DNA from: Geosiphon pyriformis uo1
Lineage: Eukaryota; Fungi; Glomeromycota
Reading direction: 5' to 3'
NCBI GenBank assembly: GCA_016748015.1
Contig: JAAOMT010000664.1
Location: 690,715 to 754,714, forward strand
DNA length: 64,000 nt
In this document: piece after piece, positions 1-29,077 of the stretch
Position numbering within the stretch: the stretch's first letter is position 1
Layout: every line of letters starts with the position of its first letter
Position numbers and translations under genes: made by a program
The notes under the pieces: model-generated
Seen by the model: only the letters and a program-made list of their open reading frames with translations
What the model was told of the DNA's origin: nothing
Databases searched by the model: none

Positions 1-3000
1 TCTACTTTATCTTCATAGTTGTATCCAGCGATTTCAAAGGTATATGCAATGTATTCTGATTCTTTCATTTGACGAACATTTTCTTGAGTGGCTCTGTTGA
101 TTAAAGCTATTGCTAAATCGAAAATCATTTCAGCATCATAAGGGTAATAGTACAGTTTGTTGAAAGTGCTATTGTAAGCAGTATTAAAAGGTGTTCCTTT
201 TTTGACTTTTTCTGAAATTGATAAAACATATTGACAGGTTTGATCGCAGACTCCTCCTTTCATTGCAACATCAATCCAATTGTATTCTTCTGGTAGCATA
301 TCTCCACAAGTCAAACAAGGAGTGTTGTCCTATTTTCTACTTCTTTTTATTAGGTGGTCCCATTATTCTCTGTGGCAAGCCTTGCAGTAATAACAAGTAT
401 GATTTTCATATTCTTCTTCAGGTAAAATGCAGGCTCTCATTGATGAAAGTTTCTTGTGGCAATCTTTGCATTTGAGTGGAATGTAAGGGCATTGTTTTCG
501 TGGTTCTGGTTTTGAATAGGGGACATTCCATCCAGGTGTTACTGGTTCTTTTGTTTCAAGAGAATCGTATGTTGAAAAATACTGTTGTTCAGTTTCATCA
601 GCCCAATTGGAGGTTGATCCAAGTGCCATAAATGTTTCAATGATGGGTTTTTCTTCTTCCAGTTTGAATTCAAAAGCCGGGGCTTTTTCGGAGTGTTTGT
701 TGAATGTACTACAAGTGGCAAGTACTCGGGCATGTTGTCCTTGGTAGGAGATTGTTAACTCTTGTGTCTTCCAATTTAGATTAGCATTGGCTTTTTGGAG
801 CCAATTGTTTCTGATGAGAGCTTGGTATTGGGGAGCATCCATGACCAGAACTTTGACTAGAATAGTAATTTCGTCAATTGTGAATGGGAAGTTGTCAATC
901 TTTCCTACTGGAGTTTTTTTCATGCCATTAGCAGTGACAATAATTGTCTGAGCTGGTTGGTTAATGTTTCTTTTTAGCTGTTGCATCAATTGATATGTGA
1001 TGATGCTTCCAGTGGATCTACTGTCTAGGATCAAGTGAATTGGCTTTCTTTCTACTTCAGCTTCTGTGTACATTGCAGTGATGGCTTTTTGCTTATTAGT
1101 CGTTGCATTGCTAAGCAAGAATGGTGATTCATTTGCTTCAAATTCAAAAGGAAATATATCTGAAAGGTTGGTATTTTCAACAATTCTGGCTGGTGAGATT
1201 ATGGTAGGAGTATAAAAAGAGTTTTGTTATTGTGCTGCAGCTCTACCTTCTGAAAGTGCAATATGGTGAAAATCCTGTTCTTCTGGCATCGTAAGATAAC
1301 TAGATTGAGTATGATAGTGGTTGGGTCTTGGTTGAACTGAATTTTGGGAAACCAATTGGTTGTTCGAATTGATTCTATTGTTGTTTACTTGGTATTGGTT
1401 TTGTGGTGTGAATTGATTTTGCGGAATCAATTTTCGAGCAGGTACTTAATAATGTTGTGTGAATGGTTGTTGGTATTGCTGTTGGATTGGCTGTGGAGCA
1501 GGCTGATAATAGTTACTTTGGTATTGGGGTCTTGGTGGATAGTAAGCTGGTAGTGATAGTTGATAATAAGATTGTTGTGGTAAAGGGTAACGTTGATTAC
1601 TCCTATTTTGTTGGTTTCATTGTAGCTTTCTGCAATCTCTTTTCCAGTGGCCAGGGATTCTACAGTAATAGCAATTCTGAGGCTGGTTATTAGAAAGTGG
1701 TGCAAAGTTATTTTGATTTCATCTTTGTGGGGATTGGTATCTTTGTGTTTGTTGTGATTGCTGTGGCTGCTGTTGTTGCTGTTGGTTGGTGAAGTAGTGT
1801 TTAACTTTCTTGGTTAATTGGTCAATCTTTTCTTCAGCTGCTGAGCTGGTTTCTCCAATAACCAAGTTAACAAGTTTGGTACGGTTGGCTTCTTCCATGG
1901 CCATTTCATAGTTTTTTGCCTGTTGAATAGCAGTGGCTAAATCTTCTGGTGCATGTGGGCAAACTTTCTTAATCAGTTTATCCTTTAAACCAGCAATAAA
2001 TTGATCCAAGATTTGAGTATTAGAATAATAATCATTAGTTTCAAGTTGGCGAATTTGTCTAAGAAGTTTGTTGAATTTCCCAATATAAGTCATGACAGAT
2101 TCGGAGGGTTCTTGTTTGATATTATGAAAATGATTTTGAAGTGTGATTGAGGTGTTGTTATCGGTGAATTGTTCTAAGAAGACAGTTTTGAAAGCTGTCC
2201 AGTCATTAAAAGGGGTGGTCAAGTTTTCAAACTATTTGCCTGCTGTTCTTTTGAGAAAGTAGAGAATTGTTCTTAACATTCTGGCAACATTCCATCCATT
2301 TGTATCTCCAGCTTTAGTAACTTGGTCAAGCCATTCTTGGGGACTGGTTTCAATATCTTCTCCATTAAATTTGGGAATTTTTGCAATATAAGCTGTCATT
2401 TTGTCTTCTTTCTCATTATCTGTTAATTCACTTTCTTCTTCAGATTCTACTTCTTCTTCAATGGATTCAGAAACGTTTTCTTTGTTGGCTAATGTTTCAG
2501 AGTGTTTGCTTGTGTTTTCTGCTAAATAGTCAAAAAGATTGGTACTAGTCTAAAGGGTTTCTTGTTGTCTGGTGAGACTTCTGGGTGATGTATAATCTTT
2601 TAGTCTTGAAAATTGATTTAAAGGTGAATTAGGAGTTTCTGCTTGTGCAAGTGAAGCTGAAAAAGGTGTAATAGTGAGTGAGAGTTTTAAACTGGTTCCT
2701 TGTTCAGGTGTTTGTAAGTGTTTGGCAGTTGTTTTTGGTAATATTGGAGTATTTAGGGTGGTTTTTGAGTATTGCTTCAATTTTTGTTTGCCTTTGTTGC
2801 TTGTTTCTGTTTCTGATTCAAAGTCAAAAGAGTATTTAGACTGTACTGAGTATTTTTCTTCACAATACTCAATAATGTTAAAATTAAGTTCTTGGAAGTA
2901 GGTAGCAAGTGTTTCACTGTTCAGATCTTCTGTTCCCAATTGTGAATAGTGCACTACATTATTGTAGAGGTTGCTTCTAACTTCTGAAATATTGTAGTTT

Positions 3001-4183: not shown

Positions 4184-7100
4184 ATGTGCCCCTCAAGACT
4201 GAAAAGTTGTCACCCTGGAAAACATTAAACTTGCTACATGCTAAAGAGATTCTATCTAAGAGCAGCTTAGAAAGCACTTTGGAAACAGTTTTAATCAGAG
4301 CAATAGGCCTTGTGTTGGTCAAAATACCTTCTCATTCATACAGTTTAGGTATTATGGAAACTCAGATCCTCTTCCATAGTGTAGGAATCATTGTCAGAGT
4401 TAGATACATGTTGCAAATATTCAATAAACCACTCAAAACTCTCTTGTCACAATGTTTCCATAGTTCATTGATAATACCAGAAAGCCCAGCTGTTTTGCCA
4501 TCTGGCAGGTTACTGACCACCACTCACAACTCATCCAAATTGAAATTGCTCATGACATTTGCAAAGGCACTAAAGTCAACATGAGCCAAGGGAGCATATT
4601 AAGCTGACCAGCAATCTGGCAGAACTTCGGGCATTATATGTTTCCTCGTCCATCCTTCCATAATTGTATCAATGTTTGACTTGATGTCACAAGAATCCAG
4701 AATCAAATTATCATCCACTATCAGATAGTCGAGCACTACTTTTTGAACTGGTTGGTTCAACACATTCTGAATCATGTGCTCTTTATCAGAGCTAAAGTTC
4801 TCCATATGTTTGTCAATTGTTTTTCTGATGGAGTTGTCTTTTGCCATCCTGAATTTATAATACTTAGATTTGTGGTATTTTTTCTTCACACCTGCCAGAT
4901 GCCGGAAAGCTATTTTGGTTCCAACATTGTTATTAATTAGGGCTTCAAACTCAAAAGCTTTTGTCTCATCAAGATCATACCAAGTGTGTAAAAAGTGAGC
5001 AAAATCAACAGTGCAACCCAAACTCAGACTCTTCACAATTTTTGCCACCAAAAGCTCTAACCTAAAAAACTTGGAAAAATATTTGTTCCTCATACACTCA
5101 AAATTACTGAATCAACATTTGAAGAAAATTTTATCAGTTAACATTACCACTGCCTCTCTCAGAATGTCCCACATTGTATCCAAATCCCCAAGGTTTTTTG
5201 CCATATTGAATTTAGGCAAACCTATAGCAAACCTATCAGACAAGCATTCTCTAAAACATAGCCATTTACCAGCATCAGCATCTTTAATCTTGAATTTCCA
5301 CTTGTTCCTATTGGCTTGCTTATGTAAACTATTTAGATCAGAATTCACAAGACCTCCCAATCCAATTGAAACTAAAACTGCCTGATGATTAGTGTTGAAA
5401 AATTCTACAACAAAGCCGACTTTGTGGTCAACAACAGCAAAAGACAAATTGCAACTAACAAAAATAAAATCAATAGTTTTCTCAATCTTTCGCGAGTTGG
5501 ACCATGTAGGAGCTTCGACCAGCATATGGCCAACAAATGAATTTATCAAACCCAAATCAGAACAAAACTTAACACTCACACTCTTCCCTTTTCCGTTTTC
5601 ATTGAAATCTCCACCCAAAACCACAAATGTACTAGAATTGACTGCTTTGGCAATGAGAGAATTGATGGCAAAAGCTTGACTAAATCTTGATTCAATAGAA
5701 GCACTAGTGTACAACCTCACAATGGATATTAAGATCTTGCTCTTAAAAAGAAGTCTAATCAAAATGACCTACCCAAGAATCTTTTTTACCTTAGAAATGT
5801 GCTGAACCAAACATTTATTCATGATAACTGCCACACCAGCTCCTAGAAAACCCTCTTCCAATCCAGAAGTAAATATCTGCATACTATCAAATTTCTTTAT
5901 AATTCATGGCCTTATGCTAGACCTTAATTTAGTTTCAGTGATAAAGGAAACCATGTTACCCGAACTCATGTGCCACCATATGACATCATTCTGCTTAGCT
6001 GGAACATTAAGGCCTTTAACATTGCATGTAGCAAATTTCCAAATCAAGTTACTTATTAAGAAGTGAAAGATACCTAAGAACCCAAGCTAGCACACAACTG
6101 ATCTAACTTCACCAAAACTGAACCAATAGAGGCCTCAAAAGCCACCAACTTGGACTCTAAACAGCCCACCTTAGTCGTCAAAATTTTTGAACTACTGAGT
6201 CCCAAAGCTGAAACAACAAAGAAATGTGCAGATACCACTACAGAACTTTTCAGAACTATATCTGAATTTGAATTCAATTCGACATTCATCAATGTAACTG
6301 GACTGTTAGAAGAAGACAGAGAAACTAAAGGCACCAAATCCATGCTGTCGAGTTTGTGCAAAATGCCAGACACTTGATCACCCAAGAGCTCCAAGGAGTG
6401 TTTCAAAAACAACAAACAAGCGTTTAAAGACAAATTGTTGATCAGAGTGAGAAGAAAACCACCACTCATATCTGAGACACCAGAAAAAAAAGAACCAGAA
6501 CCAGAACCAGACTCGAATAGAAGACCACCAGAAGAAGAGGCAAAAGAAACTATTTGAGCCCAGGATTTGCTGTCAAACACAGTGAGATAAGAAATAAGAA
6601 CATTTTTCTTGGCATACAATCTAGCCAACTGAACACAAACCTCTTCAGAAGCAGTTTTTTTATAGGTTTTTTTAGATAAAGCAGACACCAGAGTGTCAAA
6701 AGCATCACACTCCAAAGCTAAATGTCTGAAATTCCCATACTTCTTACATTGAACCAAGTCCAATCTAACCCAAGAAAGTTTCATGCCACCAAAAATTGGC
6801 TCTGTGTAAAACGCACATTCAAGCTCATTTTCAGACTTAAAACCAACAATAGCGCAGCAGGTCCAGTTGCCAGTCTCCAGAGAACAATTAATTACACAAG
6901 TTTTCCTACCAGCTCTTTCTAAAAGAACACCAAAATCATAAGCTGTTGTTCCTACTGGCAAAGTAAACAAAAGTGCCCTAAAGTGATCCCTAGACATCCA
7001 AGTATCATGATCTCCTACAGCCATAGCCATATGTACTGAATTTTTCTCAATGAGGAATGACCATTTTAACACCAATTGTTTAGCCTGTTTCAATTTGGTG

Positions 7101-8050
7101 AATTCCACCACAGCCTTTTGCCACATACCAATCAGTTAAATCTTGATTGACTTAATATTACCAAACTCAGATACTGCGGTGACAATCATTTTTTTTGGCA
7201 TATCCATGAGAATTTCTTTAATTACTATGGCCCAATCTGAATGAATTCTTTGTTTTTTAAGATCGCTGTTTATAATAATCCTCTTCTCTCTGGCCAATGA
7301 TATAGCCTTAATCAAGCTTTCTTCAGAAATAAACATTGATCAGATGATTCCTTCAAATTTTGAGGAGGTGGTGGCCCCTCCAAAACCATTGACTGTTGAA
7401 AAAATTTTTCTAATTAATTAAGTCTTTGCCATTGCTGATTTACCTTCCACAGCTGAGAAATTAATATCCAAAGCAAATGACTTTCTAATTGACACTTCCA
7501 CAGGAGTTTTGACAATTTTAGAGTCAATCCACTTTTTTTTTAAAGAGATAAGCAATTGAGGAGGGAGTACAACTTCATCATCATCCATATGAAAATTAAG
7601 AAAGCCGAGCAGAGAACCAAAACCAGTACCAGTATTGACTCATTTTGCCTTGAGTGTAGTAGCAGCTGAATCCAAAAGAGACCTACCATTTGTCCCAGAC
7701 ATACTAACATCCTTATCTTTACCAGATAAACTCTCTACATCAGAATAAACACTGTCATTAGATCCAAATTTGCTTAAGGATATATTTTTTTCATCACCAG
7801 AATGTTTTACATTATCAAGAACAACTTTTTTTTCTAAAAAAAGGAGTCATCAGCAGGACCATGAAAGACACTCTTAGGAGTCTTCTTTTTAAGTATGGTG
7901 TTACTAGCAATAGCCTCCATATCCACAAAAAATGGGTTACTATTAGGTAAAGAAATATTGATATAGACTAAAAAAAACAAAAAAACTTCTTTTTCAGAAA
8001 ATGCGCTTTTTTGGGGATTTGTAAAGGTAAGAGAAAAAGAAGTTTTTATA
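4184..8050 (-). mobile_element. Degenerate non-LTR retrotransposon (LINE) 1: 5' UTR, ORF1, APE endonuclease and N-terminal RT; cut at 4184 by Gypsy A
   Basis: ORF1 remnants from ATG 7920 to ~6053 (WQKAVVEF, C-x2-Y-x4-H-x4-C knuckle remnant). APE motifs WKFATCNVKGLN, GGDFNE, TIDFIF, TNHQAV. RT start RPIAL..GDNFSVLRGT. Collinear with LINE 2. Confidence 0.9.
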
Positions 8051-9019: not shown

Positions 9020-12000
9020 AAAAACTTTTTTCTTTCTTTTGTCAAAAAGAGTCAAAAAGTTTTTTGAAAAAAGTTTTTTACAATTCAGTATGATAAATTT
9101 AAACCCTTTATTTTTGACTATGAGGCCACCATTGGCTATAGTATTGCTATTATAAAGAAAGCTGCTAAAGCTTCTGTTTCTGGTGGCGGCTTCAGATCTA
9201 TTCTTCTGGGTAAAAAGAGAAGAGATAAGGTTTTGGAAGGTGGTTCTGGTGGTAATAATATCAGTCCTAAAGTTCAGAAAAGTAGCTCATGGAGTTCTGA
9301 GACTGGTGAAATCACTGAGTCTGAGAGTGTTGACATGGAAGAGGAATGTTTAGTAGCAAAAACCAGTTTCGATTATAGCAAAGGCAGTGCTCTTGCAGAA
9401 GGGAATCATGATCAAATGCCTACAAGTATAAGAGTCAAAACAAAGAAGGCACTGGGCAAACCATTGGAGAAAATTGATTTTTCGCTCAACAATGATGATG
9501 ATAATGTTTTCCTTGATACTCTGCTGGCATTTCTCACATCTATCAAAAAATTGGTTGCTGTTTCCATCCGTAAATCTTTTGCTTTAGATATTGGCTTGGA
9601 CAAGATTACTGAAAAATCATCTCAAGAGAAATTAGTGGTGGTTAGAAAATTGTTTTCAAGAATCAATGGTTTTGGGGGGGCCTCTACTCTCTTAAAATTT
9701 GCTGGGATCATCTGGGCAACATTCACTTCCGAATTAAGTTTGGTGAAGACTACCAAAATGACTACTGATGCAAAAATCCTGGGGAATACCGATCTCAGAA
9801 AATCATCTGAACGTTCAGATCAAGCAGTGGTATTGAAAAAAATTTCAGTTGGAACATCAATTGAGGCTGTGCATGCTGTTTTTTCTGATTTTGGTATAAT
9901 TAAGTTGATCAAGATGCAGCTGGTGGGGCTGTGGCAAAAAGCTGTGGTGGAATTTGAGCAATCGGATCAAGCTGATTTGGTCACAACTGAATGATCTATC
10001 CTTATTGGAAAGGATGCGGTGCATGTTGCGAAATCAGACAAGGACAAAGAAGCATGGGACAAAAGAGATGTTCATAAGACTTTGTTATATACTCTATTTG
10101 TGGGAACAAATGCACACAATATATGGGATTACATCAAATCTGTTGGTGGGAAGACTTGTGTAATTGACTGTTATCCAGTTTCATATGCTCGGGCCAGGTG
10201 CACCACTGTCTGTTTTAACTCTGCCGATTCATTAAATGCAGTTCTGGGAACAACACCTATGCTTAAAAGTGCAAACTTGCACTGGTTTCATCTCATAATG
10301 ACTAAGTGTGCTAAGTGTAGAAACTCAGGTCATACATCTCTAGATCGTGCTACTGGTGGGAAAATTTCTTCTAGTGGTCCACAGTGCAAGATACTTTCAG
10401 ATTCTGATAAAGACAGACTTGCTACCATTTATGCCAAATGCTCAGCTCTGGTTGCTTGTCCTGTGTCTTTTGGTGGTGCCTCCTGAATGCAAATTGTTGT
10501 AGGATCCTCTCTCTCTCCTCTTCCAGTTTGAAATGGTTTGTTGAGTATTGGCTCTTTTTTAGAGGTAAAGCCTACTCTGCAGGTGTTTTTGGCATTGAAT
10601 GATAGGTTTGCTGCTCTTGAGTGCAGTCTCACCAGTCTCGCAGAGCATGTTGATAAGCTGGCTAAGAGATTGGACACACCTGAACTGACAGTTTTCCAGC
10701 TTAGCCCTGGATGTCAGCCGTTGGTGACCTTTTCATCACAGAATCAAAAAGCGGATATAATAATGAGTGAGGGTTTGGGTGTGGCCACTAGTGGTGGAAC
10801 TGTTGCAGAAGCAGTGTTATTTGATAATTCTGTTATCACAAAAATGGAGAAAACATTAAGGAACCTTTTAGTAATGGTTATGAGCCTTTCAGCTAAAATG
10901 AAAAATGGTGGTTCAGTTCCTAATATTCATTCCTCCCAATGACTAAATTGATTTGGAAGATTGTCACGTGTAATGTCAGAGGTATGAACAATAGTGCAAA
11001 GCAGTTGGACATTGTATGTTGGCATAAAGACATAAACAATTTGGTTTCCGTTGTTATTGAAACAAAGTTGAAGAGAAAAGTTTGTCCTTAGATTGCTAAT
11101 AAGTTTGATGGAGTTCACGTTTTCACTTCTGGTTCGGATTCTAGTCACATGGGATCTGGTGTTGCAATTATTATGGACTTATCTCTGGTGAAACATGTGT
11201 GCAAGGTTCTAGAGGTGCTCAGTTGGCTCCTGTTGGTAAAATTGCTTTTCAGGAACAGATTCTCTGTTTTCATTTTGGGACTATATGCTGGTGTCTCTTT
11301 GACAGTTTGTTTTTCTTAGGCTGATAAAATTAATTCTCTTATCACTAAAGCTGTGAATGAATCCTTCTTTATTATTCTTGGTGGTGACTTCAATGAAGAC
11401 AGATCTCACAAGTGTGCCAGTTTCAAGAAGTGCTTTAATTTGGGTTTAGTTAACTCTCTGGGTGGGAGCTCTTTTGCTAAGTTGCCAACTTGGTGCAATT
11501 CTTGTGGTGTTGCTAAGACTATTGATTATATGTTTCTTTCTTTTAACTTGATTAATGCAATCATGAATCATGGCATGTTGAATGTTGATGATTTTTTTAA
11601 CACTGATTATAGGGCCGTTTATGTTTCTATGGATCTGGATGGTTTGTTGGATACAAGGCTTTCTTCAATATGTAAGCAGGCCAACAAAGATTGCTGGAAG
11701 TTTAATGTCAAGGATGTAAATAAGTTGAGGTGGGCTGAGTTCAGAGATGGTATGGCTGCCAATGCCTCTATGTTCTCAGATGTGTTTGTTGTGGCTGAGA
11801 AATTTTCAGATTTGGATGTAATGTGAGACGTTATTCGCAAAATTATGATTCTTTTGGCAGGTAGAACTTTCAAGAAAAAGTGGTTTAAAGGTTTTGACAG
11901 TGTTTTTAATAAGGTATCTTCTAGGTTTCATAAGCTGGAGTTGCTGGTTTCTAAGCTGGTAAAGGCTTCCTGTTTGACGTCTGGAGGTAATTTTGCTCTA

Positions 12001-13370
12001 TTGTTGGATACATGGGACAAGCTTAACTCTGCTGGCGCTTCGTTAGTGAAGTCTCTTTTTCTTTTAGTGTCTGGTTTTGATGGTATTCACTCTGAGCTGG
12101 CTAAGACAAGGAAGTCTTACCATTCTTCCAAGATGTTGGAATCTAAGCGTGCTGAGAAATCTCATATAAGACAGATTATTGAGTATAGGATGGAGAGCTT
12201 TGAGCTGAACAAGGGTCATACTATCAGAAGTGTTTTGGAGTGTCTATTTTGCAAGATAGTGTTGAATCATTTGGTAATGGATGATGAGTTGGTTTTGGAA
12301 TCTGAGCTGGTTAAATCTAAAGTGGATGAGATTATGGAGGGATGAACTAGGAGGCAGTTGGTGGTTTCAAACTTCTCTGATAATTGGAGATGCCAATTTC
12401 GGCCTTTGGACTACGTTTTTAATGATGCTTTCTCTGGTGTTATGGAATTGATTAGTTTTGGTGAGATGTTCAGTGTCATTTCGAGTTTGCTTAATGAAAA
12501 AGCAGCTGGTCTTTCTGGCATCTCTAATGAATTATAGAAGCATTGCGACAGAGTGGTTCTAGATATGCTTTTGGTGCTTCTGAATCTCTGCCTGGTTTGT
12601 GAGTTGGTGCCTGATCTTTGGAGGGAAGCCTGAGTTTCGATAATTCTTAAATTCTATGAATGGGAGGGTGTTCTCATGAACACCCATTCTATTGCTTTGA
12701 TTGAAACAACCTGCAAAATCCTTTCCAAAATCTTGTTGGACAGGATATCTTTGGCTTGCAGTGAATTTGACATTTTGTGAGGAGACAATTTTTCTGTTTT
12801 AAAAGGTACAACAACACAGTCACCCATTTTTGTCATTGGTTCTGTGGTTCAGGATTCCTTGAAAAAAAACAGGAAGCTGTAACTGGTTTTACAGAACATG
12901 CACAAAGTGTATGATTTGGTTGGTTGGAAACATCTCGAGAGGAGTTTGATCAGGATTAAAATGTGTAACAGGTTCATTAGATTTTTTGGTAACATCCACA
13001 ATAATTGCAGGAATAGGGTGATGACAAATTTTGGCTTGACTAATGGGTATGTGGTTCATAATAATTTGGATCAGAATGAAGTTTTTTCGCTGCTTCTCTG
13101 GCGCATATTTTATGATTTGCTTATATATAAGATCAAGAGACAAGGAGAGGTGTGTGGTTACAGGTTGAATTCACATTTTGTTTTCAATACTGGCCATGTG
13201 GAATCTCAGGCTGGTTTAACATCGTTTTTTGCGGCTGGTGCTTTTGTTGATAATACCATCTGGATTGGTAGCAGCCAGACCACTACACAATACATTCTGA
13301 ACATTGCTAGTGAGTTCTTCAGGATTAATGACATTTCGATTAACAATAACAAAACCGTGGCTATTCCTGT
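9020..13370 (+). mobile_element. Degenerate LINE 2, 5' half: ORF1 (~9120-10942), ORF2 APE and RT (from 10939)
   Basis: ORF1 with RRM-like segments and CAKCRNSGHTSLDR knuckle remnant. ORF2 MTKLIWKIVTCNVRGMN, GGDFNE, TIDYMF, TDYRAV. RT motifs MHKVYDLV, LDQNEVFSLLLW, AFVDNTIW. Numerous stops. Confidence 0.93.
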
Positions 13371-13885
13371 TGTTACGGGATGGTTTTCTTGTTATATTTA
13401 ATTGCTGATATCCCGCTTTAATTACAATCAGTCTTTCGTGAGTTCCTCAGTTCTATTTGTGTGATAATGTCACTGTTATACTGAAGGCTTTCTTTTTACT
13501 GTTGTGATGTAAGTTATTCTTTAATTCTTGATTGTTGTGTGTGTTTATGTACTCCTTTTCAGAGGCTGAACTGAAATCTACCCACTGTCTGGGGTCTTCT
13601 CTGAGGCTATCCTTGCAATTGCCTGATGTGTTTCTCTAATCTAGAAACACAGAATGTTAATAGTCTTTAGCGCTTTTNNNNNNNNNNNNNNNNNNNNACC
13701 TGGTGTTTGCTGCTATCACCAGTTGGTGTTGGCTGCTATTGTGAACTGGTGCTTGCCACTATCGCGAGATGGTGTTTGCTACTATGTTAATCATTACCTT
13801 TCTAAGATTATTACTGTGCTATATTATGATTGAATAGTTTGTATTATTTTTATGATTCTTTTTTCTAAATTCTTAAACTGTAACA
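13371..13885 (-). repeat. 3' LTR of element B (contains an N-gap)
   Basis: TGTTA...TAACA termini; matches 23095-23593. Confidence 0.95.
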
Positions 13886-13900
13886 TTATCCCCTCCTTTC
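13886..13900 (-). promoter_or_regulatory. Polypurine tract GAAAGGAGGGGATAA
   Basis: Purine run on the minus strand immediately before the 3' LTR. Confidence 0.9.
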
Positions 13901-16900
13901 AAGATTGAGCTCCGTCGAAATCAAAGTTAATTTCTTCATTAAATTCTAAGTTACTATAGTGGTTCAATACTGTGTTATTAATTTGTTGTTGTAATTCTTG
14001 AAATTGCGAGTTGGTAAGTCGTCCAATACTGTTGGTTGTTATTATGTTCATGGTTGGGTCCAACAATAATTTGTGACAGTTTTCAAATGCTTTGAAAATT
14101 CTATAAACTGTTTTTGAATGGAATGTAGTGTTGGTTTTTCCAATGAAAGGTTCTAATAGTTGGATAGTTGTTTTGTCAAANNNNNNNNNNNNNNNNNNNN
14201 TAATCCATTTGTTTGAGGGTGGTATGGTGATGACAGTGGTCACTTGATTCCAAATTTTTGGCTAAGTTCTTTTAAGATGCTGTTTACGAAGTGTGTGCCT
14301 TGATCTGATAGCAATTCTTGTGGACATCCATGTCGGCAAATTAAGTCTTCATGTATGAATTAAGCTACGGAAATAGCATCAGCTGTTTTAATAGCTCTAG
14401 CTTCTGGCCATTTGGTGAGATAGTCCATGGCTACTGCAATATAACAGTTGTTTCTTGTTGTTATTGGTAAAGGTCCAATTAAATCAATTCCGATTCTGTC
14501 AAATGGCTGTCCAACTTTTATTGGTCTTAATAATTCCATTGTTTTTGCTCCTCCTCTTCGTTGGCATGGGTCACAATTTCTTATGTATTGGATTATGTCT
14601 AAGCTCATTTTTGGCCAATAGTAACGGCTAGTTGCACGTTGGATGGTTGCTGTTTTTCCAAAGTGGCCTGAATGAATATCTGAGTGCATGTTAAATAAGA
14701 TAGTTTCTTTTTCATCTGTGGTTATAACTCTTAATGGATTATCTGGATTTTGTCGATTCTGGTAATAAAATATGTGATTTTGGATGAAATAGTGTTTTGC
14801 TAATTTTTGGAGCTTAATTAGCTCTTTTACTGGCATTTTTTTGTCTATTTGTAGTGTNNNNNNNNNNNNNNNNNNNNCATTTTTAGATAGTGGGTAATTA
14901 AGGGGTTTGGCGATGTTTGAAAAGTTTTCTACAAAGTGGCGGTAGTAAGATGCGAGTCCTAAAAAGCTTCTAACTTCTGAAACGTTTCAAGGTACTGGAA
15001 AATTTTTCACTTTGTCTATTTTTGATGGATCTGGTTTTATTCCATCTTTTCCAACTACGTGTCCTAAAAATGCTAGCTCATTTTTCCCAAAGAAACATTT
15101 TTCTAGATTTAGTTTAAGTCCAGCGTGTCTCAATCTCTCAAAAACTTGTTGTAAATATTGGAGATGATCCGTGAATTTTGACGAGAAAACATTTGTATTA
15201 TCCAAGTAGACAACAACGGATTGCCACAGGATTCCGGAGTAAATTACGTCCATTAGTCTTTGGAATGTCGCGGGAGCGTTTGTTAATCCAAATGGCATTA
15301 CATTGAACTCATAATTGCCATTTTGTGTTGTGAATGCTGTTTTATGCCTGTCCTTTGGGTCCATTTCCACTTGCCAGTACCCACTGGTCAAGTCCAGTAT
15401 AGAAAACCATTTTGCTCCTCCAAAAATGTCGAAGATTTTGTCAATTAACGGTATTGGGTATGAGTCTTTGGTTGTTTTGCTGTTTAGTTTGCGATAGTTG
15501 ATGCAAAATCTAATTTTTCCGTTCTTTTTCCTTACNNNNNNNNNNNNNNNNNNNNATCACGAGTTTCTTGGTTTCTGGACTGGCTGCTTGTTCCAGTGAC
15601 TGGTCTTGTGATTGTTTTTTCGCTGGTCTCTTTTTCGGATTCTGATTCAGACTCCTCTTCACGGTTTTCAAATCTCATTCTAAATTTTGGCTGAAAAAGA
15701 GGGTTTTGGAATAGTGATGAATATCCTCCTGTAATTGGTATGTCTCCCCAGTTACGTTGTTTAATTTTATCAATATAACTAGAAGTTCTTGGCGTTTGTG
15801 GAGTTGATGTTGATGATGATGCAGCTCCTAATGGAATTTGTATCTTATTTTCTGGTGAAAAATGGTATGATTTATCTTCTGGTGAATAAATACGTTGTTT
15901 CTTTATTGATTGAGTGACAGTTTTCTTTGGTGTTTGAGCTGGTGTTTCTAGTTTTTGCTGGTTACTTTNNNNNNNNNNNNNNNNNNNNTTATCATGTCTC
16001 ACTTTTTGTTGTTTTTGTGATTGTTCAATATTTTGTGCTGCTTTTCTTCTTTTGTTTTCTAAAGTTCCCATTAATTCGTATGTTTTTCTAAGTAGTGTTT
16101 CCTGGAATGTTGCTTCCGTGATAGTGTCACTCGGATAAGTTGGGATAGTAAGTTCAATGGGTAATGTGGCTTTTCTTCCATAAACTAGTTCAAACAGTGT
16201 GAATTGTGTAGTATCTTGTTTTACTGTTCTATATGCTAATAATACTGCTGGTATGAACAAATCCCATTCTTTTTCATGTTCGTTACTAATTTTCGCCAGT
16301 GATTTGCATAATGTGCGATTAAATCTTTCAACTAATCCATTTGTTTGAGGGTGGTATGGTGATGACAGTGGTCACTTGATTCCAAATTTTTGGCTAAGTT
16401 CTTTTAAGATGCTGTTTACGAAGTGTGTGCCTTGATCTGATAGCAATTCTTGTGGACATCCATGTCGGCAAATTAAGTCTTCATGTATGAATTAAGCTAC
16501 GGAAATAGCATCAGCTGTTTTAATAGCTCTAGCTTNNNNNNNNNNNNNNNNNNNNGAATATCTGAGTGCATGTTAAATAAGATAGTTTCTTTTTCATCTG
16601 TGGTTATAACTCTTAATGGATTATCTGGATTTTGTCGATTCTGGTAATAAAATATGTGATTTTGGATGAAATAGTGTTTTGCTAATTTTTGGAGCTTAAT
16701 TAGCTCTTTTACTGGCATTTTTTTGTCTATTTGTAGTGTTTCCAAGTATTGGCTGAGGTTTTTGTAAAGGTGGTTGTTCATTGTTGTTGTGGCGGGTGGG
16801 TTGGTGATTTTTATGTATGTCTCATTCTTGACAAACAGTCGGCATTAGCATTTTTGGTACCTTCTTTGTATTTGATAATATAATCGTATGGTGCTAATGT

Positions 16901-17225
16901 TTGTAACCATCTGGCGTATTTTCCTTTTAGCGCTTTCTTGTTATTTAACCAGACCAGACCTCTATAATCTGTCGTAATCTCAAAGGGTTGGTACCGTAAA
17001 TATGTGTCAAAGTGAACACAACTCCAGACTACTGCTAAGCATTCAAGTTCATGTGCTGCGTAGTTTTGTTCTGCCGTACTGAGACTTCTGCTGGTATAAG
17101 CGATTACATGTTCTCTTCCATTATCATCTTTTTGTGACAGAATGGCTCCAAGTTCAGTTCCAGAGGCATCTGTGGCCAAAATGAATTTCTTGTTGAAATT
17201 CGGATNNNNNNNNNNNNNNNNNNNN

Positions 17226-17687
17226 TTCAGCGAAATTCGCTTCAATTCCTTTTCCTGTCGATCCAAAACCAAAAGTTCCTCTCGTTGTTTGTGACAATTC
17301 CTCACGATTTTCCACTGGCACGAATTTCCCAATTTTTACCAATGGTAGGAAAATTGCTTGTGCAATCTTTTCCTTAGATTCAATGGTATAAGGCTTTTCT
17401 GAATTGTTCTGTAGCAAAACCATCAAATTTCCAGTGTATCTGGAGTCAATTACTCCTCCTTGAACGCTTATTCCTTTTTTTGCGAGGCTTGATCGCGACG
17501 CCATTTGAACCATTATTTCTGGCGGAATTTCAACCGCTATTTTTAGGTCAATTTTGGTGATGCTCCTGGGTGGTAATGTTGTGGATTGGTCTTCTGGATA
17601 ACGTAGATCGAATCCGGCGTTGGTTGGATGGGCTCTTTCGGGTATTATTCCTAAGTGCCCGTTGTCGAAGTATTGGATGTCGGTCAC
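17226..17687 (-). CDS. Retroelement-encoded trimeric dUTPase domain within pol
   Basis: All five motifs in order: AGFDL, SRSS, GVIDSRYTG, IAQ, RGTFGFGSTG. Segment 18535-19493 joins motif 5 in frame to the RT N-terminus. Confidence 0.93.
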
Positions 17688-20600
17688 CTGTTCTAGGTCA
17701 GTATAGGCTACAAATTTTTCTGACTTGGGACCGTCAGGTGAGTTTTGTTGATTTATTGATTGATTTTGAGACTACTGATTCTCAATTTCCATTTTTCTTT
17801 CCAAGTCCCTTTTGTCTTGACACTCTTCACAACACTGACTTTGGCACGGGATGAGACAGTTTTCGCAGAGGTAAGTGTTGATTTGGGCGAGGTATTGTTC
17901 TTGCTCTTGTCGAGTGGGGCATAGTTGTTGGTAGTAGTCCTGGAATTCGTCCACTGGGTCGAACATGTTGTAGCTGGTGACTTCGTTGGCTACTTCGGCT
18001 GACTCTTTTCAACGTCATATTTCTTCGGCGGTTCCTCCTCTTACTTTGGCTTGTGCAGTGTTGTACAACTCGTCCTCGTCGTGTGGGTAGTGCTATAGTC
18101 TTTTTAACGCTCTGTTGAACNNNNNNNNNNNNNNNNNNNNTTCCGGAATGTAGACGGGTTCTTCTGTGGTGTTTGCGATAGGAATTTTTATCCATTGAGC
18201 TTTATCAGCTGGAATAAAAAAGTTAGTAAGTCCTATAAGAAACTGTTGGCAAGTTTCTGGGTAGGGCTTAAATATTAGGTCTTTTTCTTTAATTGTTCTT
18301 TTTATTCTTATTTCTGATTTTCCATATGGTAGGAGCGTGATGGACCGCTCATTTTTAATTACTTCACCTTTTTCCTCTATTGTTTCAGCGAAATTCGCTT
18401 CAATTCCTTTTCCTGTCGATCCAAAACCAAAAGTTCCTCTCGTTGTTTGTGACAATTCCTCACGATTTTCCACTGGCACGAATTTCCCAATTTTTACCAA
18501 TGGTAGGAAAATTGNNNNNNNNNNNNNNNNNNNNTGTTTTATGCCTGTCCTTTGGGTCCATTTCCACTTGCCAGTACCCACTGGTCAAGTCCAGTATAGA
18601 AAACCATTTTGCTCCTCCAAAAATGTCGAAGATTTTGTCAATTAACGGTATTGGGTATGAGTCTTTGGTTGTTTTGCTGTTTAGTTTGCGATAGTTGATG
18701 CAAAATCTAATTTTTCCGTTCTTTTTCCTTACTAAAACAACTGGTGAGGACCATGGGCTTATTGATGGTTGTATTATTCCTTTTTCCAACATGCTTTGGA
18801 CTTCTTCTCTGATAAAATTATGCTCTATTGGTGGGGCATGGTAAGCGCGTTGTTTTTCAGGTCTGGCGTCTCCAGTGGGAATTTGGTGTTGAACCAAGTT
18901 GGTTCTTCCAAATTTGCCATTTCTTGAAAATATATCAGAGTATTTTAAAATTAATGCTTTTAATTGTTGCTGTTGGTCGGGATCCATTGTTCCAATATTT
19001 AATTTGGCCAATTCTTCTGGTGTAAATTGATAGCATTCTACTGGTTGTTGCCAATTTATTGAAGTAAGTTCACAGTAGAGGGTGATTTCTGGGAAATTTA
19101 GAATTTCTTGTGGTGTTGACGCGTTTTCTAGCTCTGTTCTGAGGTATCCAATGATAGTATCTTCCGGAATGTAGACGGGTTCTTCTGTGGTGTTTGCGAT
19201 AGGAATTTTTATCCATTGAGCTTTATCAGCTGGAATAAAAAAGTTAGTAAGTCCTATAAGAAACTGTTGGCAAGTTTCTGGGTAGGGCTTAAATATTAGG
19301 TCTTTTTCTTTAATTGTTCTTTTTATTCTTATTTCTGATTTTCCATATGGTAGGAGCGTGATGGACCGCTCATTTTTAATTACTTCACCTTTTTCCTCTA
19401 TTGTTTCAGCGAAATTTGCTTCAATTCCTTTTCCTGTCGATCCGAAACCAAAAGTTCCTCTCGTTGTTTGTGACAATTTCTCACGATTTTCCANNNNNNN
19501 NNNNNNNNNNNNNCTTCTTGCAAACCGAGCATTCTAGCTTTGGTCTGCGTCGCTGGTGGTTTCTTCGTGAACTTACCTGGTTCCATTTGGATCTTTCTTC
19601 GCTGGTCCACATTGGTACGGTTGGTAGTCCTGTTCTTTGGTCATCAGCCCAAGAGAGCTGATAGGTTTCAATGGCTGGTAGTGCTGGATTTTCCTCAAAT
19701 TCGAAGGTAGATCTTTGGTTGGCGCTGGGTTTTTGGAAGTGGCCACAGGTGGCTGGAATTTTGGCCTGGTGGCCATTATAATTGATCAGAAGCTCTTGGG
19801 TGATCCAGTCTAGGGTGGCGTTGGCTTTTGTTAGCCAGTCATTCCCTACTAATGCTTGATATTGTGTAGCGTCCATTACTAATACTTTTGTAGGTATTAC
19901 TATGCCGTTAATTTCGAAAGGGAATGAGTCGATTTTGCCATAAGGCAGCTTTGTACTTCCATCGGCTGTTATGATTTGGGACGTCACAGCACGATCAACT
20001 TTGAAACCCAGTTGGTTTACTAGTTAAAGCGTTATGATGCTTCCAGTAGATCCGCTGTCTAAGATAAGTTTGATTGGGGTATTGTTTACAGTGGCTTCCG
20101 TATACATAGTAGTGATTGGACGTTTTTTGTCCAATGCTGCTTCACTGAACATAGCCTCGTTTTCCTCTAATTCAAAAAGAAAAATAGCTGCGAGGCTGCT
20201 ATCTTCGGTGGCAACTGCTGGTGGTATTGTCTGACTCAATTTGGAGGAATTCTTGGTTCTGTTTATGTTTCTACCGTCATTGTTTCTGATGATCAGGTTT
20301 TCCAGTATATTAAGGTAAGTTTGTTGATAATTTTGGTAGTTTGGATTGGTTTGCTGATTGGTTCCGGCGCGGTTTGGATTCCTCTGGACCAACGTGTTCT
20401 GGTTCCACATGGGCTGATTTCGGGCCTCGGGACGCCAATTCGGGTTGGCTATCATGGGCTGTTGCTGGTAAGCTCCTTGATTTTAATACGTGGTGGGATA
20501 TTGGCGTGGTATTGGCGTGTACTGGTTTCTGGGCATTTGGGGTGGCGCATAGTAATTATTTTCGCGTGCTTCCTGCATCATTCGCATTCAACATTGACTA

Positions 20601-23075
20601 ATCAAATGTCCTATGCGTTTGCAAAAATGGCAGGCGCGTGTTTCTGTTCTGAATTCCTGGTGCGACGAGCGATTATTTCGACTGTCGCTGACTTCCTGGC
20701 TGCATTTTTGGGGTGGTTGGTATGTATTTTTTCTTGGATCCGGGATGAGGTAACTTTCTATTTTCTTAGAGAGTTCCTCCCCTAATCGCGTTACTCTTTT
20801 CTCTAATGTTTCTGTCTTATTTTCCTCCATTACCATGTTAACCATTTGACTATGGTTAGCTTCTTTCTCAGCCGATTCAAGGGCTCTGGTAAGCGTAACG
20901 GCTTCTGGTAAGGAATTAGAGTGGGCAGGGCATACTCTTTCTAAAATGCTGCTTTTTAATCCTCTAATAAACTGATTTAAAACCTGAGGATCAGTATAGT
21001 ATCCTTGTTCAATCGCTTCAATCTGACGGCAAATTCGATTGAATCGAGCAAGGTATTGGGTGACAGTTTCACCAGTATTTTGCTTGATAGTATTGAATTT
21101 GTTCTGTAGTTGGATTATGGCGTTTGGGTCGCTAAAATACTCCAGGAGTGCATTTTTAAATTCGGCGAAGCTCGTGGGTTTTGTTTCCAGGCTTTGATAC
21201 CACGAGTCGGCTGTGCCTTTCAGGAAGAAAGGTAATGTTTGAATTGCTCTTTGGTCATTTCAGTTATTTGCCTGGATGGCTTTTTGTGCTTCTCTGAGCC
21301 ATGTGTGCATGTCCGTTTCTTCTTCCTCTCCTGAGAAATCTGTTAGTCTTGCAATGTATGGTGTGGTCATTTCGTTGCCGTTTTCTGCTGGTGGGTTTAT
21401 TGGTCTAAGAGAAGGTGGGATGATATTTCCTTAAGCATTTTTAAAGATGGCTTCCCTTATATCTGGTTCTTCCTCTTGATCACGAGTTTCTTGGTTTCTG
21501 GACTGGCTGCTTGTTCCAGTGACTGGTCTTGTGATTGTTTTTTCGCTGGTCTCTTTTTCGGATTCCGATTCAGACTCCTCTTCACGGTTTTCAAATCCTG
21601 TTCTAAATTTTGGCTGAAAAAGAGGGTTTTGGAATAGTGATGAATATCCTCCTGTAATTGGTATGTCTCCCCAGTTACGTTGTTTAATTTTATTAATATA
21701 ACTAGGAGTTCTTGGCGTTTGTGGAGTTGATGTTGATGATGATGCAGCTCCTAATGGAATTTGTATCTTATTTTCTGGTGAAAAATGGTATGATTTATCT
21801 TCTGGTGAATAAATACGTTGTTTCTTTATTGATTGAGTGACAGTTTTCTTTGGTGTTTGAGCNNNNNNNNNNNNNNNNNNNNGCACGGGATGAGACAGTT
21901 TTCGCAGAGGTAAGTGTTGATTTGGGCGAGGTATTGTTCTTGCTCTTGTCGAGTGGGGCATAGTTGTTGGTAGTAGTCCTGGAATTCGTCCACTGGGTCG
22001 AACATGTTGTAGCTGGTGACTTCGTTGGCTACTTCGGCTGACTCTTTTCAACGTCATATTTCTTCGGCGGTTCCTCCTCTTACTTTGGCTTGTGCAGTGT
22101 TGTACAACTCGTCCTCGTCGTGTGGGTAGTGCTATAGTCTTTTTAACGCTCTGTTGAACGCTGCTTCGAACGGCATTCCTCCTCTTACCCAGTCACAGAT
22201 GAGGATCGTGTATTGGCAAGTTGCATCACACGTTCCTTCTCTGCCTGATAAGTTGTTCCAGTCGCACCCTCTTGGTAACAGTTCTCTACAAGCGAGGCAT
22301 GGTTCCTCGTCCCATTTTCCGTGTCTTTCTGGATAACCGTATTTTTCTTTGTTACAACAGTTACAATAGTAGTGGGTGGGGTTTTTTGGGTCTTTGTCCG
22401 GTGTGCTGCACGCAGTCATAGACGAGAGTTTCTTCTTGCAAACCGAGCATTCTAGCTTTGGTCTGCGTCGCTGGTGGTTTCTTCGTGAACTTACCTGGTT
22501 CCATTTGGATCTTTCTTCGCTGGTCCACATTGGTACGGTTGGTAGTCCTGTTCTTTGGTCATCAGCCCAAGAGAGCTGATAGGTTTCAATGGCTGGTAGT
22601 GCTGGATTTTCCTCAAATTCGAAGGTAGATCTTTGGTTGGCGCTGGGTTTTTGGAAGTGGCCANNNNNNNNNNNNNNNNNNNNTTGTTGGCGCATTCCCT
22701 AGTGTTTCCTGTGGATATTGGAAAATTTTCGTTGGCGTATTGCTCAATTTCTTGATGGATTTTGACAATAGTTGTGGCTATTACTGCTACTTCTTTTGTA
22801 GTGTATTGTGATAATTCTCTATACAATCCAAGTTTTGCATCGTGTGGTTCTTCTTCCTTTCCTATATGATAATTTATTCTGGCGTTGATATAATAAGTGA
22901 GAGCAGATTCTGCTGGACAACACCCTTCTGGTAATCCAAGATCACTCTGATTTTGTGTGTAAATAGCACGGCAGAATTCAAGAACAGTAAGATTAGGGGT
23001 TTTTGTCACCACTTTTGTCTTTTCCTTTTTAGCAATAAATTATTGCTAATTATTATTTCCTTTTTGATTTTCTTT

Positions 23076-23092
23076 CCTCGTAGGGTTCACCA
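23076..23092 (-). promoter_or_regulatory. Primer-binding site TGGTGAACCCTACGAGG (primer tRNA not assigned)
   Basis: Starts with TGG two nucleotides inside the 5' LTR end, complementary to a tRNA CCA end. Confidence 0.8.
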
Positions 23093-23094
23093 AA

Positions 23095-23593
23095 TGTTAT
23101 GGGATGGTTTTCTTGTTATATTTAATTGCTGATATCCCGCTTTAATTGCAATCAGTCTTTCGTGAGTTCCTCAGTTCTATTTGTGTGATAATGTCACTGT
23201 TACACTGAAGGCTTTCTTTTTACTGTTGCAATGTAAGTTATTCTTTAATTCTTGATTGTTGTGTGNNNNNNNNNNNNNNNNNNNNGATCTATTGCTTGAT
23301 AAGTTATGATTTTTATTACTTGATTGATTATTTCCCAATATTAAAACTACTGTATATATACATGTTTGTAGTTCTACGAGAAAATACTTTCTTTTTGATA
23401 TTTCAACCTGGTGTTTGCTGCTATCACCAGTTGGTGTTGGCTGCTATTGTAAACTGGTGCTTGCCACTATCGCGAAATGGTATTTGCTACTATGTTAATC
23501 ATTACCTTTCTAAGATTACTACTGTGCTATATTATGATTGAATAGTTTGTATTATTTTTATGATTCTTTTTTCTAAATTCTTAAACTGTAACA
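23095..23593 (-). repeat. 5' LTR of element B (contains an N-gap)
   Basis: TGTTA...TAACA termini; matches 13371-13885. Confidence 0.95.
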
Positions 23594-23597
23594 CTGT

Positions 23598-26000: not shown

Positions 26001-26482
26001 TAAAACTAAAAACTAAAAAATTAAATTATAACATTATTATTTTAAAACTAATATAAATAATCTTAAAAATAAAAAACTACAAAAAAAACAATATTAAGTT
26101 ATACTTTTAACTTGTTTACTTTAATTATTTTATATAATAAATATTAAATTATTAAAAAATTTCAAGCAAAGCAACATTAAAAATAAGTAACCTAATTTTT
26201 AAATAATGATAATATTTTTTTTGTCTGGTTTTATTAAATATAAAAAAACAAAATTTGGCTTAAAATTTGAAAATATTATTTCAAAATTTTTACAGTCTTA
26301 TATTTCTGTTGGAAATTAATTATATGGGGTAAAAGGCATTACTGTAGCTCGAAATCTCGATCCCCTAATCGATGATCTTCATGCTGAATGTCACGTGAAA
26401 CATTGTTACAAAGATAGCATGATAAAAATAATTTTGCTGTTTTGATTTTCTCTTTTGTACATTGAGCTAAAACTATGCTCCA

Positions 26483-29077
26483 ATGAGTGCCGAAAAACCA
26501 TCGCAAGAAATTACCTTTTCCCCAATGGGAGACATCGAAGTGTCCAAAAAGCCATTGGAACAGCAGCAAAAAAAACCAAAATCACTTCAAGTACTACCAC
26601 CACCACCAATTGAAGACAGCAAACAAGAACCAACTTTACTAACCAAATCGCAGCCAACTCAACCCCAGCCACCTCCACCAGGGCACATGGCTCCTCCAAC
26701 AATAGAACAACCACCACCCCCAGGACAAGTCCCACTTCCAGTTCCAACACAGCCACCACCTCCAAGTCAAGTGACTACTTCTGTGCCTTCAACGTCTGTG
26801 ATCGCCCAACCACCACCACCTGGTCAAGTTGCATCTCAAACAGTAACTTCATTAACCCAACCACCTCCATCCGCAAAAATAGCAACCACAATCTCAGTCG
26901 AAGCACAACCACCACCACCAGGACAAACAGCTCCCACTTCACAAGCACCCACTCAGCCTCCACCCCCTGGACTTGAATCGCGAGCAACAGAGTTTTTAGC
27001 CCAACTTCAACTTTTACCGAAAGCTGCTCTCGCATTGCAAAACAGTAAAGCTAATATTCCTCCACAACCTTCGCAAATAGTTGAACAATCAAAAGCTTCA
27101 CAACTTCCGAATCAACCTCCCAAATCCATTCAGCCTGGGCTACTCACTTCTACAATTCCAGGGGTGCCATCAGTCTTGTATTCTGATAAGAAAAAAGGTC
27201 CAATACCAAGGCGACCGACTCAACCTTTATTTCTGCTGCTGCACGAATGTAGTAAAGAGGTAACATATTTTTATCTAATAGAAAAACGATATCTAAAAGA
27301 GGAACTGAAAATTTTCGTTGTTGAATGGCTGTTTAGTATATCACTGGATATCTTACCAAAAAAACAGAGGAGGATACAACAGATTTATTTAGCGATCGAA
27401 AGAAATTACATGCTGATTTAAAGCTCTATTGCACCGAGATTGTTCTTTCATCAGCAAGAGAACGCATATTGCACGAATTAGACGAAGTAAGAAAAACACC
27501 CGATAGGTCAATTTTTGAAATCTAATATTCTTTTTATTTCTTTTCTGAAAGCATTCATACTTTAATCCAGAAAGGGAAAGAGGCTCTTAAAGATATTACT
27601 CCTGAAACTGAAGTATGTCCTTATAAATTGTTCAAAAATTTTGCAAAATTTAATTTAATTCTAATACTTTTCACAACCAAAATACCAGAATTTAAAAGCC
27701 AAATTTTCGGAGTCTTTGATATTACATAAAATTTTTTCTGACACATTGGAAGATGTTAAATACCAGTATACCATAGCCGGAGAAAATTCAGAATCGAATC
27801 AAAGTGCTCTACAACCAGGTAATTTTTCCATTATTTATCGTGTACCGATCGCAAAAATTGCTGATTCTTTACTCATTTTTGAGTTTTCAGAGCTCCTAAA
27901 TATTTTTCGGTTATGGGAGCAATACAATAAAAAAGACATAACTATTGCAAATACTGTTCACACAGAGCAACCTCGTGCTCGTGGTCGGGGAGGATATAGT
28001 CGCGGTGGATATTGGCCTCCACGTGGTGGCGGCCCTCCGAGGCATTCGCCTTATCCTCAACAAGGGCCGCCTCGTCGGCGTGATTGGACAGGAGGTATTC
28101 GAGATGATAGAGAATATAGAGATCGTCGCCCGGATGATTATCATCGAGACCGACGCGAGGAATATCCACGTAGAGATTATGATCGAAGACAAGATTATCG
28201 GGGTCCAGCTGGACCACCACCTTTTGGTCGTGAAAGACCACCTATAGGCCGAAGAGATGATCAATATCATCGAGCAGGTGGATATGAGGACAGAAGACGA
28301 GAAAATAATATGTATGATCGGAGACCAGATGATAATAGGCATCCTAGGGATTATCGTGGTCCCCCCCCACATCCAGGTCCTCTTGTTCCACCACCTAAAC
28401 CCTCTCCAGCCATTTATGAAGCACCACCTATGCCTCCCAATCCACCACCAACACCTCACGTGCAAACTTCCCCACAGGCTGGTTATGATTATCAGCAATA
28501 TTCCACTGAACAACAACAGCAGCAGCAGCAGCAGCAGCAGTATACTGCAGGTAAAAATAAAAAGGGACACCAAATATGCAAATTTAATTCTAAAATGTTT
28601 CTATTTCTGCTTAGGTCCCGCTGCATATCAACAAGACTATAATAATCAAGCATATCCCGGTTATTATCCTCAGTATCCTCAAGAACATCAAATAAACGGA
28701 CAGGCCAATCAGCAATATCAATATCAAGCTGCGGCTACAACAGGATGGGAAACACAAAGCGCACAAATGCAGGCCGCTCAATCTCATTTAACATCATTTG
28801 GTTGGAATCAGCCTGGACGCCATACCGCGATCCCGTTACCTACGTGAGTGCTGGGAAGTCAATTTATGAATATATCAAATCAATCTTCTTATTCTATAAT
28901 AAAATATTTTAACTGATTTATTTTCACTTCTTAAGGGATTTTATGGCCGGACCAAGCAGTGCACCTCGATTATCTATGCCGGAGCCTCATGAAGTCCTCG
29001 GTGTGATTAAAGGTGTGATAATTCGAGATGCTCAAGGTAATATCGGATTGAGTCAATATCACTTCAGCACAATGTAA
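26483..29077 (+). CDS. Spliced gene (about 7 exons), unknown protein with QPPPPGQ repeats, helical middle, RGG/Arg-Asp-rich region, poly-Q and a short ordered C-terminus
   Basis: ORFs 26483, 27716 and 28257 link through short GT-AG introns. The last exon DFMAGPSSAPRLSMPEPHEVLGVIKGVIIRDAQGNIGLSQYHFSTM ends at TAA 29077. Confidence 0.8.

Follow-up and report, generated by a model that had tools for sequence, protein, structure and literature searches.

A conserved three-cluster cysteine module, apparently undescribed, between protease and dUTPase in Ty3/Gypsy retrotransposons of Geosiphon pyriformis

In fungi, PosPlaTy3-5 of Postia placenta carries a dUTPase between protease and reverse transcriptase (RT), and dUTPase domains have also been reported in Phanerochaete elements and in Tmt1 of Tuber; the role of the retrotransposon enzyme was called unclear (PMC2864245). 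For the betaretroviral nucleocapsid (NC)–dUTPase of Mason-Pfizer monkey virus (MPMV) and mouse mammary tumor virus (MMTV), a coupling of nucleic-acid binding to dUTP hydrolysis at reverse transcription has been proposed (PMC4531489), and the Juno long terminal repeat (LTR) retrotransposons of bdelloid rotifers have one extra knuckle after their dUTPase (PMC5408684). These accounts, and the comparisons with them below, follow the accessible parts of the three papers. The present study concerns a stretch of 64,000 nucleotides from the glomeromycete Geosiphon pyriformis uo1 (assembly GCA_016748015.1, contig JAAOMT010000664.1, positions 690,715 to 754,714, forward strand), hereafter the window, and two decayed Ty3/Gypsy elements in it, A and B. 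Both carry a Cys-rich module of about 200 residues, placed between protease and dUTPase, which constitutes a conserved domain in Pol, distinct from its linkers and apparently undescribed, within a known kind of element.

The Geosiphon elements share with the fungal dUTPase elements the Ty3/Gypsy order, and their dUTPase is placed as in PosPlaTy3-5. Unlike those described elements, they have the 200-residue module before the dUTPase, a likely degenerate second dUTPase after it, and a separate integrase open reading frame (ORF). As in betaretroviral NC–dUTPase, a putative zinc-finger unit stands directly N-terminal of a trimeric-type dUTPase. However, betaretroviral NC is a Gag-derived CCHC protein of 81-95 residues, joined by frameshifting and encoded upstream of protease, whereas the Geosiphon module is internal to Pol, follows the protease, is all-Cys, is more than twice as long and contains a helical core, while Gag retains a knuckle of its own. 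The all-Cys composition, the other spacings and the position past the protease rule out membership in the betaretroviral group. With Juno the elements have in common an extra zinc unit, putative here, beside the dUTPase and between protease and RT; the single knuckle of Juno follows the dUTPase, whereas three all-Cys clusters precede it in Geosiphon.

The module contains 13 Cys residues in three clusters, with the helical core between the second and the third. Cluster 1 reads C-x2-C-x24-C-x2-C, cluster 2 C-x2-C-x19-C-x3-C and cluster 3 C-x2-C-x3-C-x4-C-x2-C; 106 residues separate clusters 2 and 3, and each spacing pattern is confined to these places in the six frames of the window. A sequence-only reading of the window had noted a multi-Cys module between protease and dUTPase in two divergent Gypsy elements, and the motifs it quoted are present on the minus strand, at 22449-22216 and 17867-17820 in B and at 470-234 in A. 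Thirteen Cys positions are shared; some of the Cys residues it quoted, among them the middle Cys of YYCNCC and the doubled Cys of QCC, are specific to a copy or family. The modules of A and B align with 76 identities over 224 positions (34%, E 2e-39).

Conservation was assessed on an alignment of 87 rows, in which Geosiphon groups A, B and C and a metagenomic protein, P0292, were compared as four lineages. All 13 Cys occur in P0292, and each predominates at its position in groups A, B and C. At these columns 818 of 884 cells hold Cys. Of the 66 exceptions, 49 have Tyr, which a single G-to-A step would produce, as expected from decay after insertion; in cluster 3 the fifth Cys is the weakest of all, with 8 of 15 at position 540 in group C, and P0292 has Thr in place of one extra Cys that A, B and C have in common. 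Residues other than Cys are fixed as well, namely Trp, Gly, Pro, Tyr and Lys, and altogether 60 of 195 module positions are common to all four lineages, whereas the two linkers together have 6 such positions of 73 (p 6e-5); the corresponding figures for the enzymes are 63 of 115 in protease and 36 of 85 in dUTPase. No His in the module is common to the four lineages, and no internal repeat was found among the three clusters (hhalign probability below 3%). Families A, B and C of Geosiphon keep spaced Trp residues in the linker between protease and module (22450-22663 and 471-720, minus strand), which P0292 largely lacks.

P0292, which came from an exhaustive profile search, is a single open frame of 1064 residues on a 19 kb ENA metagenome contig, with intact protease, dUTPase and RT motifs. 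It comprises a Gag tail, protease (residues 182-271), module (347-548), dUTPase (610-737) and RT (973 to the end). Measured Cys to Cys, its module spans 202 residues, short of the roughly 250 first estimated, and the module does not run directly into the dUTPase as had been thought: about 55 residues (45-60) of poorly conserved linker intervene, in which B has a stop at 17774-17772. A tree of 30 module rows, hand-picked from 372, separates family A, family B and some four subgroups of C, and gives P0292 a branch to itself (0.68) next to family A, a placement flagged as unsure.

The order protease, module, dUTPase recurs in other Geosiphon gene models; the module profile matches 372 of 402 collected proteins, and of the 81 long enough to check, 75 have a dUTPase motif after cluster 3. 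Word-based protein searches returned G. pyriformis gene models for 43 of 43 matches, for the 120 listed of 246, and for 119 of the 120 listed of 324, the remaining listed match being encoded by the window itself. The profile of the exhaustive search covered 705 positions, including protease and dUTPase columns, and its best 150 of 1019 matches were crowded with decayed copies, so that distant relatives may rank lower. It contributed 124 new proteins; 19 were traced to their source, of which 18 are from Geosiphon and the other is P0292. Among the matches listed, the module is known so far from Geosiphon and one metagenome contig. No relatives were found in JGI metagenomes, IMG/VR, GTDB or phage records by searches that need short exact patterns or close similarity.

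Differences between A and B fall mostly at third codon positions, from which we conclude that the module evolved under purifying selection. Over 158 module codons there are 93, 108 and 59 identities at positions 1, 2 and 3, with 27, 26 and 56 transversions (p 9e-6). The proportion of nonsynonymous differences (pN) is 0.376 and that of synonymous differences (pS) 0.709, the latter near saturation, which makes the ratio of the corresponding rates (dN/dS), about 0.24, a rough one. The protease has the same codon-position pattern (19/15/51 over 128 codons), and the upstream linker is without it (24/19/24, p 0.63). The three checks set beforehand for a new domain thus returned no family match, shared Cys residues, and dN below dS. 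The two stops noted earlier in the module of A are confirmed (365 and 332); B has three, and relatives mostly have Gln, Arg or Trp at these places. In DNA run X1, most of the depth differs from the window at two of the B stop codons (22048, 22056), and 395 of the 397 variant places between 17226 and 22662 are transitions. The family decays strongly by C-to-T type change.

Comparison with described families agreed with the initial view that the module belongs to none that is recognized, as no significant match was obtained in the libraries searched. In Pfam this holds for the window copies and the 87 aligned members, for which the best rows, all below the cut-off, among the 25 of 67 families listed were zf-HC5HC2H (E 0.0019, in 3 members), Cytochrome_C7 (in 5), LIM (in 2) and Yippee (in 2). 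PHROGs and NCBIfam gave no significant module match for 17 members, PDB sequence searches returned weak dUTPase rows in one case and no rows in another, and the best ESM Atlas values, 0.78 and 0.82, were not significant, the nearest named clusters (0.78-0.80) lying within the chance range. Foldseek found nothing at E 0.001 among PDB and viral structures. The AlphaFold models have a mean predicted local distance difference test score (pLDDT) of 59 for the family A protein P0218 and 51 for the whole of P0292; in each of them confidence is high (about 77-92) for the last part of cluster 2 and the first helices, while clusters 1 and 3 are partly or poorly resolved. In P0292, pLDDT falls below 50 at residues 298-343 and 550-621, which flank the module, and part of the dUTPase is also low; the models would fit a separate unit between flexible or disordered linkers. 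VIA gave a best Z of 4.7 for the P0218 model and Z of 4.4-5.7 for P0292 residues 415-498, to winged-helix domains and unrelated bundles alike, an example for the helical core being E2F-DP (Z 5.5, root mean square deviation 2.5, 64 residues aligned). Because model quality is poor over clusters 1 and 3, a new fold is not claimed. Literature searches brought up no description of the module: the accessible parts of PMC11952901 and of PMC3248453 do not mention dUTPase or zinc, and those of PMC9453076 and bioRxiv 10.1101/2021.03.30.436303 do not contain the module.

The paired C-x2-C motifs, in a protein that works in the cytoplasm, suggest that the module likely binds three zinc ions. The TRASH/MYM-type treble clef has the spacing C-x2-C-x(about 20)-C-x3-C, and PHD and LIM fingers follow C4HC3 and C2HC5 patterns, with a His ligand. 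Paired C-x2-C ligands are common to the module and to fingers of the treble-clef and zinc-ribbon kinds (TRASH/MYM-type, LIM, double zinc ribbon). Cluster 2, with its 2-19-3 spacing, resembles the TRASH/MYM type, a family not among the 25 of 67 listed from Pfam, over a region where model confidence is partly low; cluster 3 resembles a short zinc ribbon in its spacing. A PHD or LIM finger is ruled out by the lack of a four-lineage His, the Pfam rows for these being sub-threshold (3 and 2 of 87).

The locus of element B is scrambled in the assembly, with 13 N gaps across 13678-23285 and pieces that overlap at 97-100% identity. Two overlaps are exact, 17844-18120 with 21883-22159 (277 bp) and 19514-19745 with 22432-22663, and the order of the pieces was derived from such overlaps, along which the Pfam matches were placed; other Geosiphon gene models and P0292 back this order independently. 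The blocks 22040-22450 and 17772-18120, previously taken as successive, are instead overlapping pieces of one module that have the 277 identical bp in common. Element B is a single insertion at 13371-23593 in the order LTR, Gag, protease, module, dUTPase, further beta domain, RT, RNase H, stop, integrase, LTR. It has the paired TG...CA LTRs, target duplication (4-bp ACAG at 13367-13370 and 23594-23597), primer-binding-like site and purine tract of Ty3/Gypsy elements, and the Pfam matches in it include a Ty3-type Gag, with protease, RT, RNase H and integrase in the Ty3/Gypsy order. The features, all on the minus strand, are as follows.

23095..23593, minus: 5' LTR of element B, TG...CA, gapped, with ACAG before it and a primer-binding-like site from 23092
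20588..21430 (approximate), minus: Gag capsid and CCHC knuckle of B, Pfam PF03732 and PF19259 on 20591-21259
19740..20128 (approximate), minus: aspartic protease of B
22450..22663, minus: linker from protease to module in B, of which 22432-22663 duplicates 19514-19745
22216..22449, minus: Cys clusters 1 and 2 of B, first Cys at 22449
21883..22215, minus: helical core and start of cluster 3 of B, in-frame stops at 22134, 22056 and 22050
17820..17867, minus: Cys cluster 3 of B, on piece 17226-18120
17649..17819, minus: linker from module to dUTPase in B, poorly conserved, with the one in-frame stop already given
17253..17648, minus: dUTPase of B, Pfam PF00692, E 1.9e-27
18535..19380, minus: post-dUTPase beta domain and start of RT in B, RT going on at 14878-15535
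16811..17205, minus: RNase H of B, ending at the stop 16813-16811
16556..16781, minus: start of the separate integrase ORF of B, ATG at 16781, going on at 14201-14857 and 15989-16535
13371..13885, minus: 3' LTR of B, gapped, 97-98% identical to the 5' LTR, with ACAG after it and a purine tract just upstream
3..470, minus: clusters 1 and 2 (470-234) and most of the helical core of element A, stops at 365 and 332
711..1100, minus: aspartic protease of element A

The integrase ATG lies 29 nt past the RNase H stop and in another frame, so that integrase is not in the Pol frame, where its presence is a usual but not a defining Ty3/Gypsy trait. No chromodomain was detected in the integrase pieces scanned; the C-terminal end of integrase is lost to gaps in the assembly. 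The domain that follows the dUTPase (P0292 748-832; about 19060-19380 and 18141-18380 in the window, minus strand) matches the dUTPase folds of Epstein-Barr virus (Z 5.9), equine infectious anemia virus (5.2) and Plasmodium (5.0), with a weak hhalign match to the element's own dUTPase (E 0.014, probability 3%); it is likely a degenerate second copy, to judge from its modeled fold. At 13899-14180 (minus strand) an open frame of 93 codons without recognized motif ends just before the purine tract, possibly an integrase tail or extra ORF. In runs X2 and X3, whose kind is only guessed, contigs skip 68-220 nt within 17343-22622 on the plus strand, antisense to element B; of the 11 joints listed, 9 were examined, 7 being GT..AG on the plus strand, one AT..AG and one ambiguous, and the joints of DNA run X1 over element A are GT..AG in 0 of 13. 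A spliced antisense transcript from one family-B copy, spanning gag, protease, module and dUTPase, is the likely source. No RNA dataset was listed as holding the module.

As to function, the reading we tentatively prefer is that the module is a zinc-stabilized nucleic-acid tether for the dUTPase, like betaretroviral NC–dUTPase in its working though not a member of that group. The module would fold separately, bind three zinc ions, remain joined to the dUTPase after protease processing and keep the enzyme on element RNA or DNA, and dUTP would be destroyed where the element is reverse-transcribed; that the module binds zinc and nucleic acid, is processed in this way and tethers the enzyme are all steps that we infer. 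This model is favored because the module stands N-terminal to the dUTPase like betaretroviral NC, because cluster 1 is basic (K/R versus D/E 10:7, 12:4 and 9:6 in three lineages), and because the dUTPase motif follows so regularly; the middling winged-helix DNA-binding matches that the modeled helical core repeatedly gives may be counted for it too. The position of the module in the intact P0292 frame, the shared Cys residues and the protease-like codon pattern also speak for it, and the extra knuckle of Juno, like NC–dUTPase, offers a precedent. Several observations weigh against it. The helical core and clusters 2 and 3 are net acidic, with 9 K/R versus 19 D/E in the P0292 core; the unconserved, low-confidence linker to the dUTPase could be cut; Gag has a CCHC knuckle of its own; and winged-helix Z values of this size are common for helical bundles and were tied with those of unrelated folds. 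In addition, the co-occurrence of module and dUTPase is one inherited arrangement rather than a set of independent events, the module stands equally always behind the protease, and the accessible part of PMC2864245 mentions no such domain for other fungal elements with a dUTPase. A more elaborate model, in which the three-zinc domain acts as a particle-assembly device of a split-integrase Gypsy lineage, is trimerized by the dUTPase, grips the genome, recruits integrase and aided the expansion in Geosiphon, seems doubtful to us.

Of the other explanations, the one that survives best, although we consider it unlikely, is a protein-binding adaptor that brings a host factor, or integrase translated on its own, to Gag–Pol in the particle. 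The separate integrase ORF rules out a chromodomain-like covalent link and opens such a recruiting role: behind the RNase H stop, integrase would have to reach the particle noncovalently, and the acidity of much of the module would suit protein rather than nucleic-acid binding. The narrow range in which the module was found, Geosiphon and one metagenome contig, may count against this. More doubtful still is a passenger that was captured in one cassette with the dUTPase and kept mainly for the folding or spacing of the polyprotein, with no specific binding. Parts of the module are less conserved than the enzymes (17/82 to 18/41 of positions common to four lineages, versus the 63/115 of the protease) and the known range is narrow, which favors this account, but residues other than Cys are fixed among the 60 common positions, the three clusters persist across deep branches where a mere spacer would be expected to shrink, and the searches made here found no donor gene.

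There is little to recommend the suggestion, raised in the sequence-only reading, that the module recognizes chromatin or a target, or counters silencing, as no result supports either role. A chromatin or target-site reader guiding integration would accord with the multi-zinc-finger and helical architecture, with the sub-threshold PHD-like and LIM rows (3 and 2 of 87), and with the absence of a chromodomain from the integrase pieces at hand. However, integrase is a separate ORF with no covalent joining to the module, the His that PHD and LIM need is not conserved, the Pfam rows are far below cut-off, and a chromodomain could lie in the integrase C-terminus that the gaps conceal; we regard this reader as improbable. 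Slightly more remote is an anti-silencing factor released from Pol to counter methylation or RNA silencing. The transitions in DNA run X1 bespeak host attack on the elements, and element B is covered by the spliced antisense contigs, but no likeness to known suppressors was found, the Pol position would imply a low dosage, and Geosiphon copies are heavily mutated despite the module. Finally, an assembly chimera or chance Cys richness, which the scrambling of the locus by 13 gaps might suggest, is refuted by the intact independent frame of P0292 and by codon-level selection, with the exact overlaps and many gene models also against it, and has next to no chance of being right.

The module bears on why some retrotransposons keep a dUTPase and how the enzyme reaches the site of reverse transcription. 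The well-known small set of Ty3/Gypsy Pol domains is extended by a selected module without family match, whose importance is limited by its narrow known range and inferred mechanism. The intact frame of P0292 makes its function directly testable. LTR elements make up 41.2% of the G. pyriformis genome according to the accessible part of PMC11952901. Hundreds of annotated G. pyriformis 'hypothetical proteins' are decayed module copies, which inflates gene counts.

Element A (1-3200) belongs to a different family from B and is cut by the window edge before cluster 3. Gene model P0154, which maps onto window positions 7920-366 and so confirms the window as part of a G. pyriformis scaffold, fuses it with decayed copies of another element. 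Two such copies, at 4215-7920 and 9374-12774, lie in opposite orientation and are non-LTR-retrotransposon-like by gene-model sequence. Elsewhere in the window, ORFs of 316-448 codons without Pfam match are found at 35414-36670 (plus), 47768-49114 (minus), 26471-27421 (plus) and 27665-28642 (plus).

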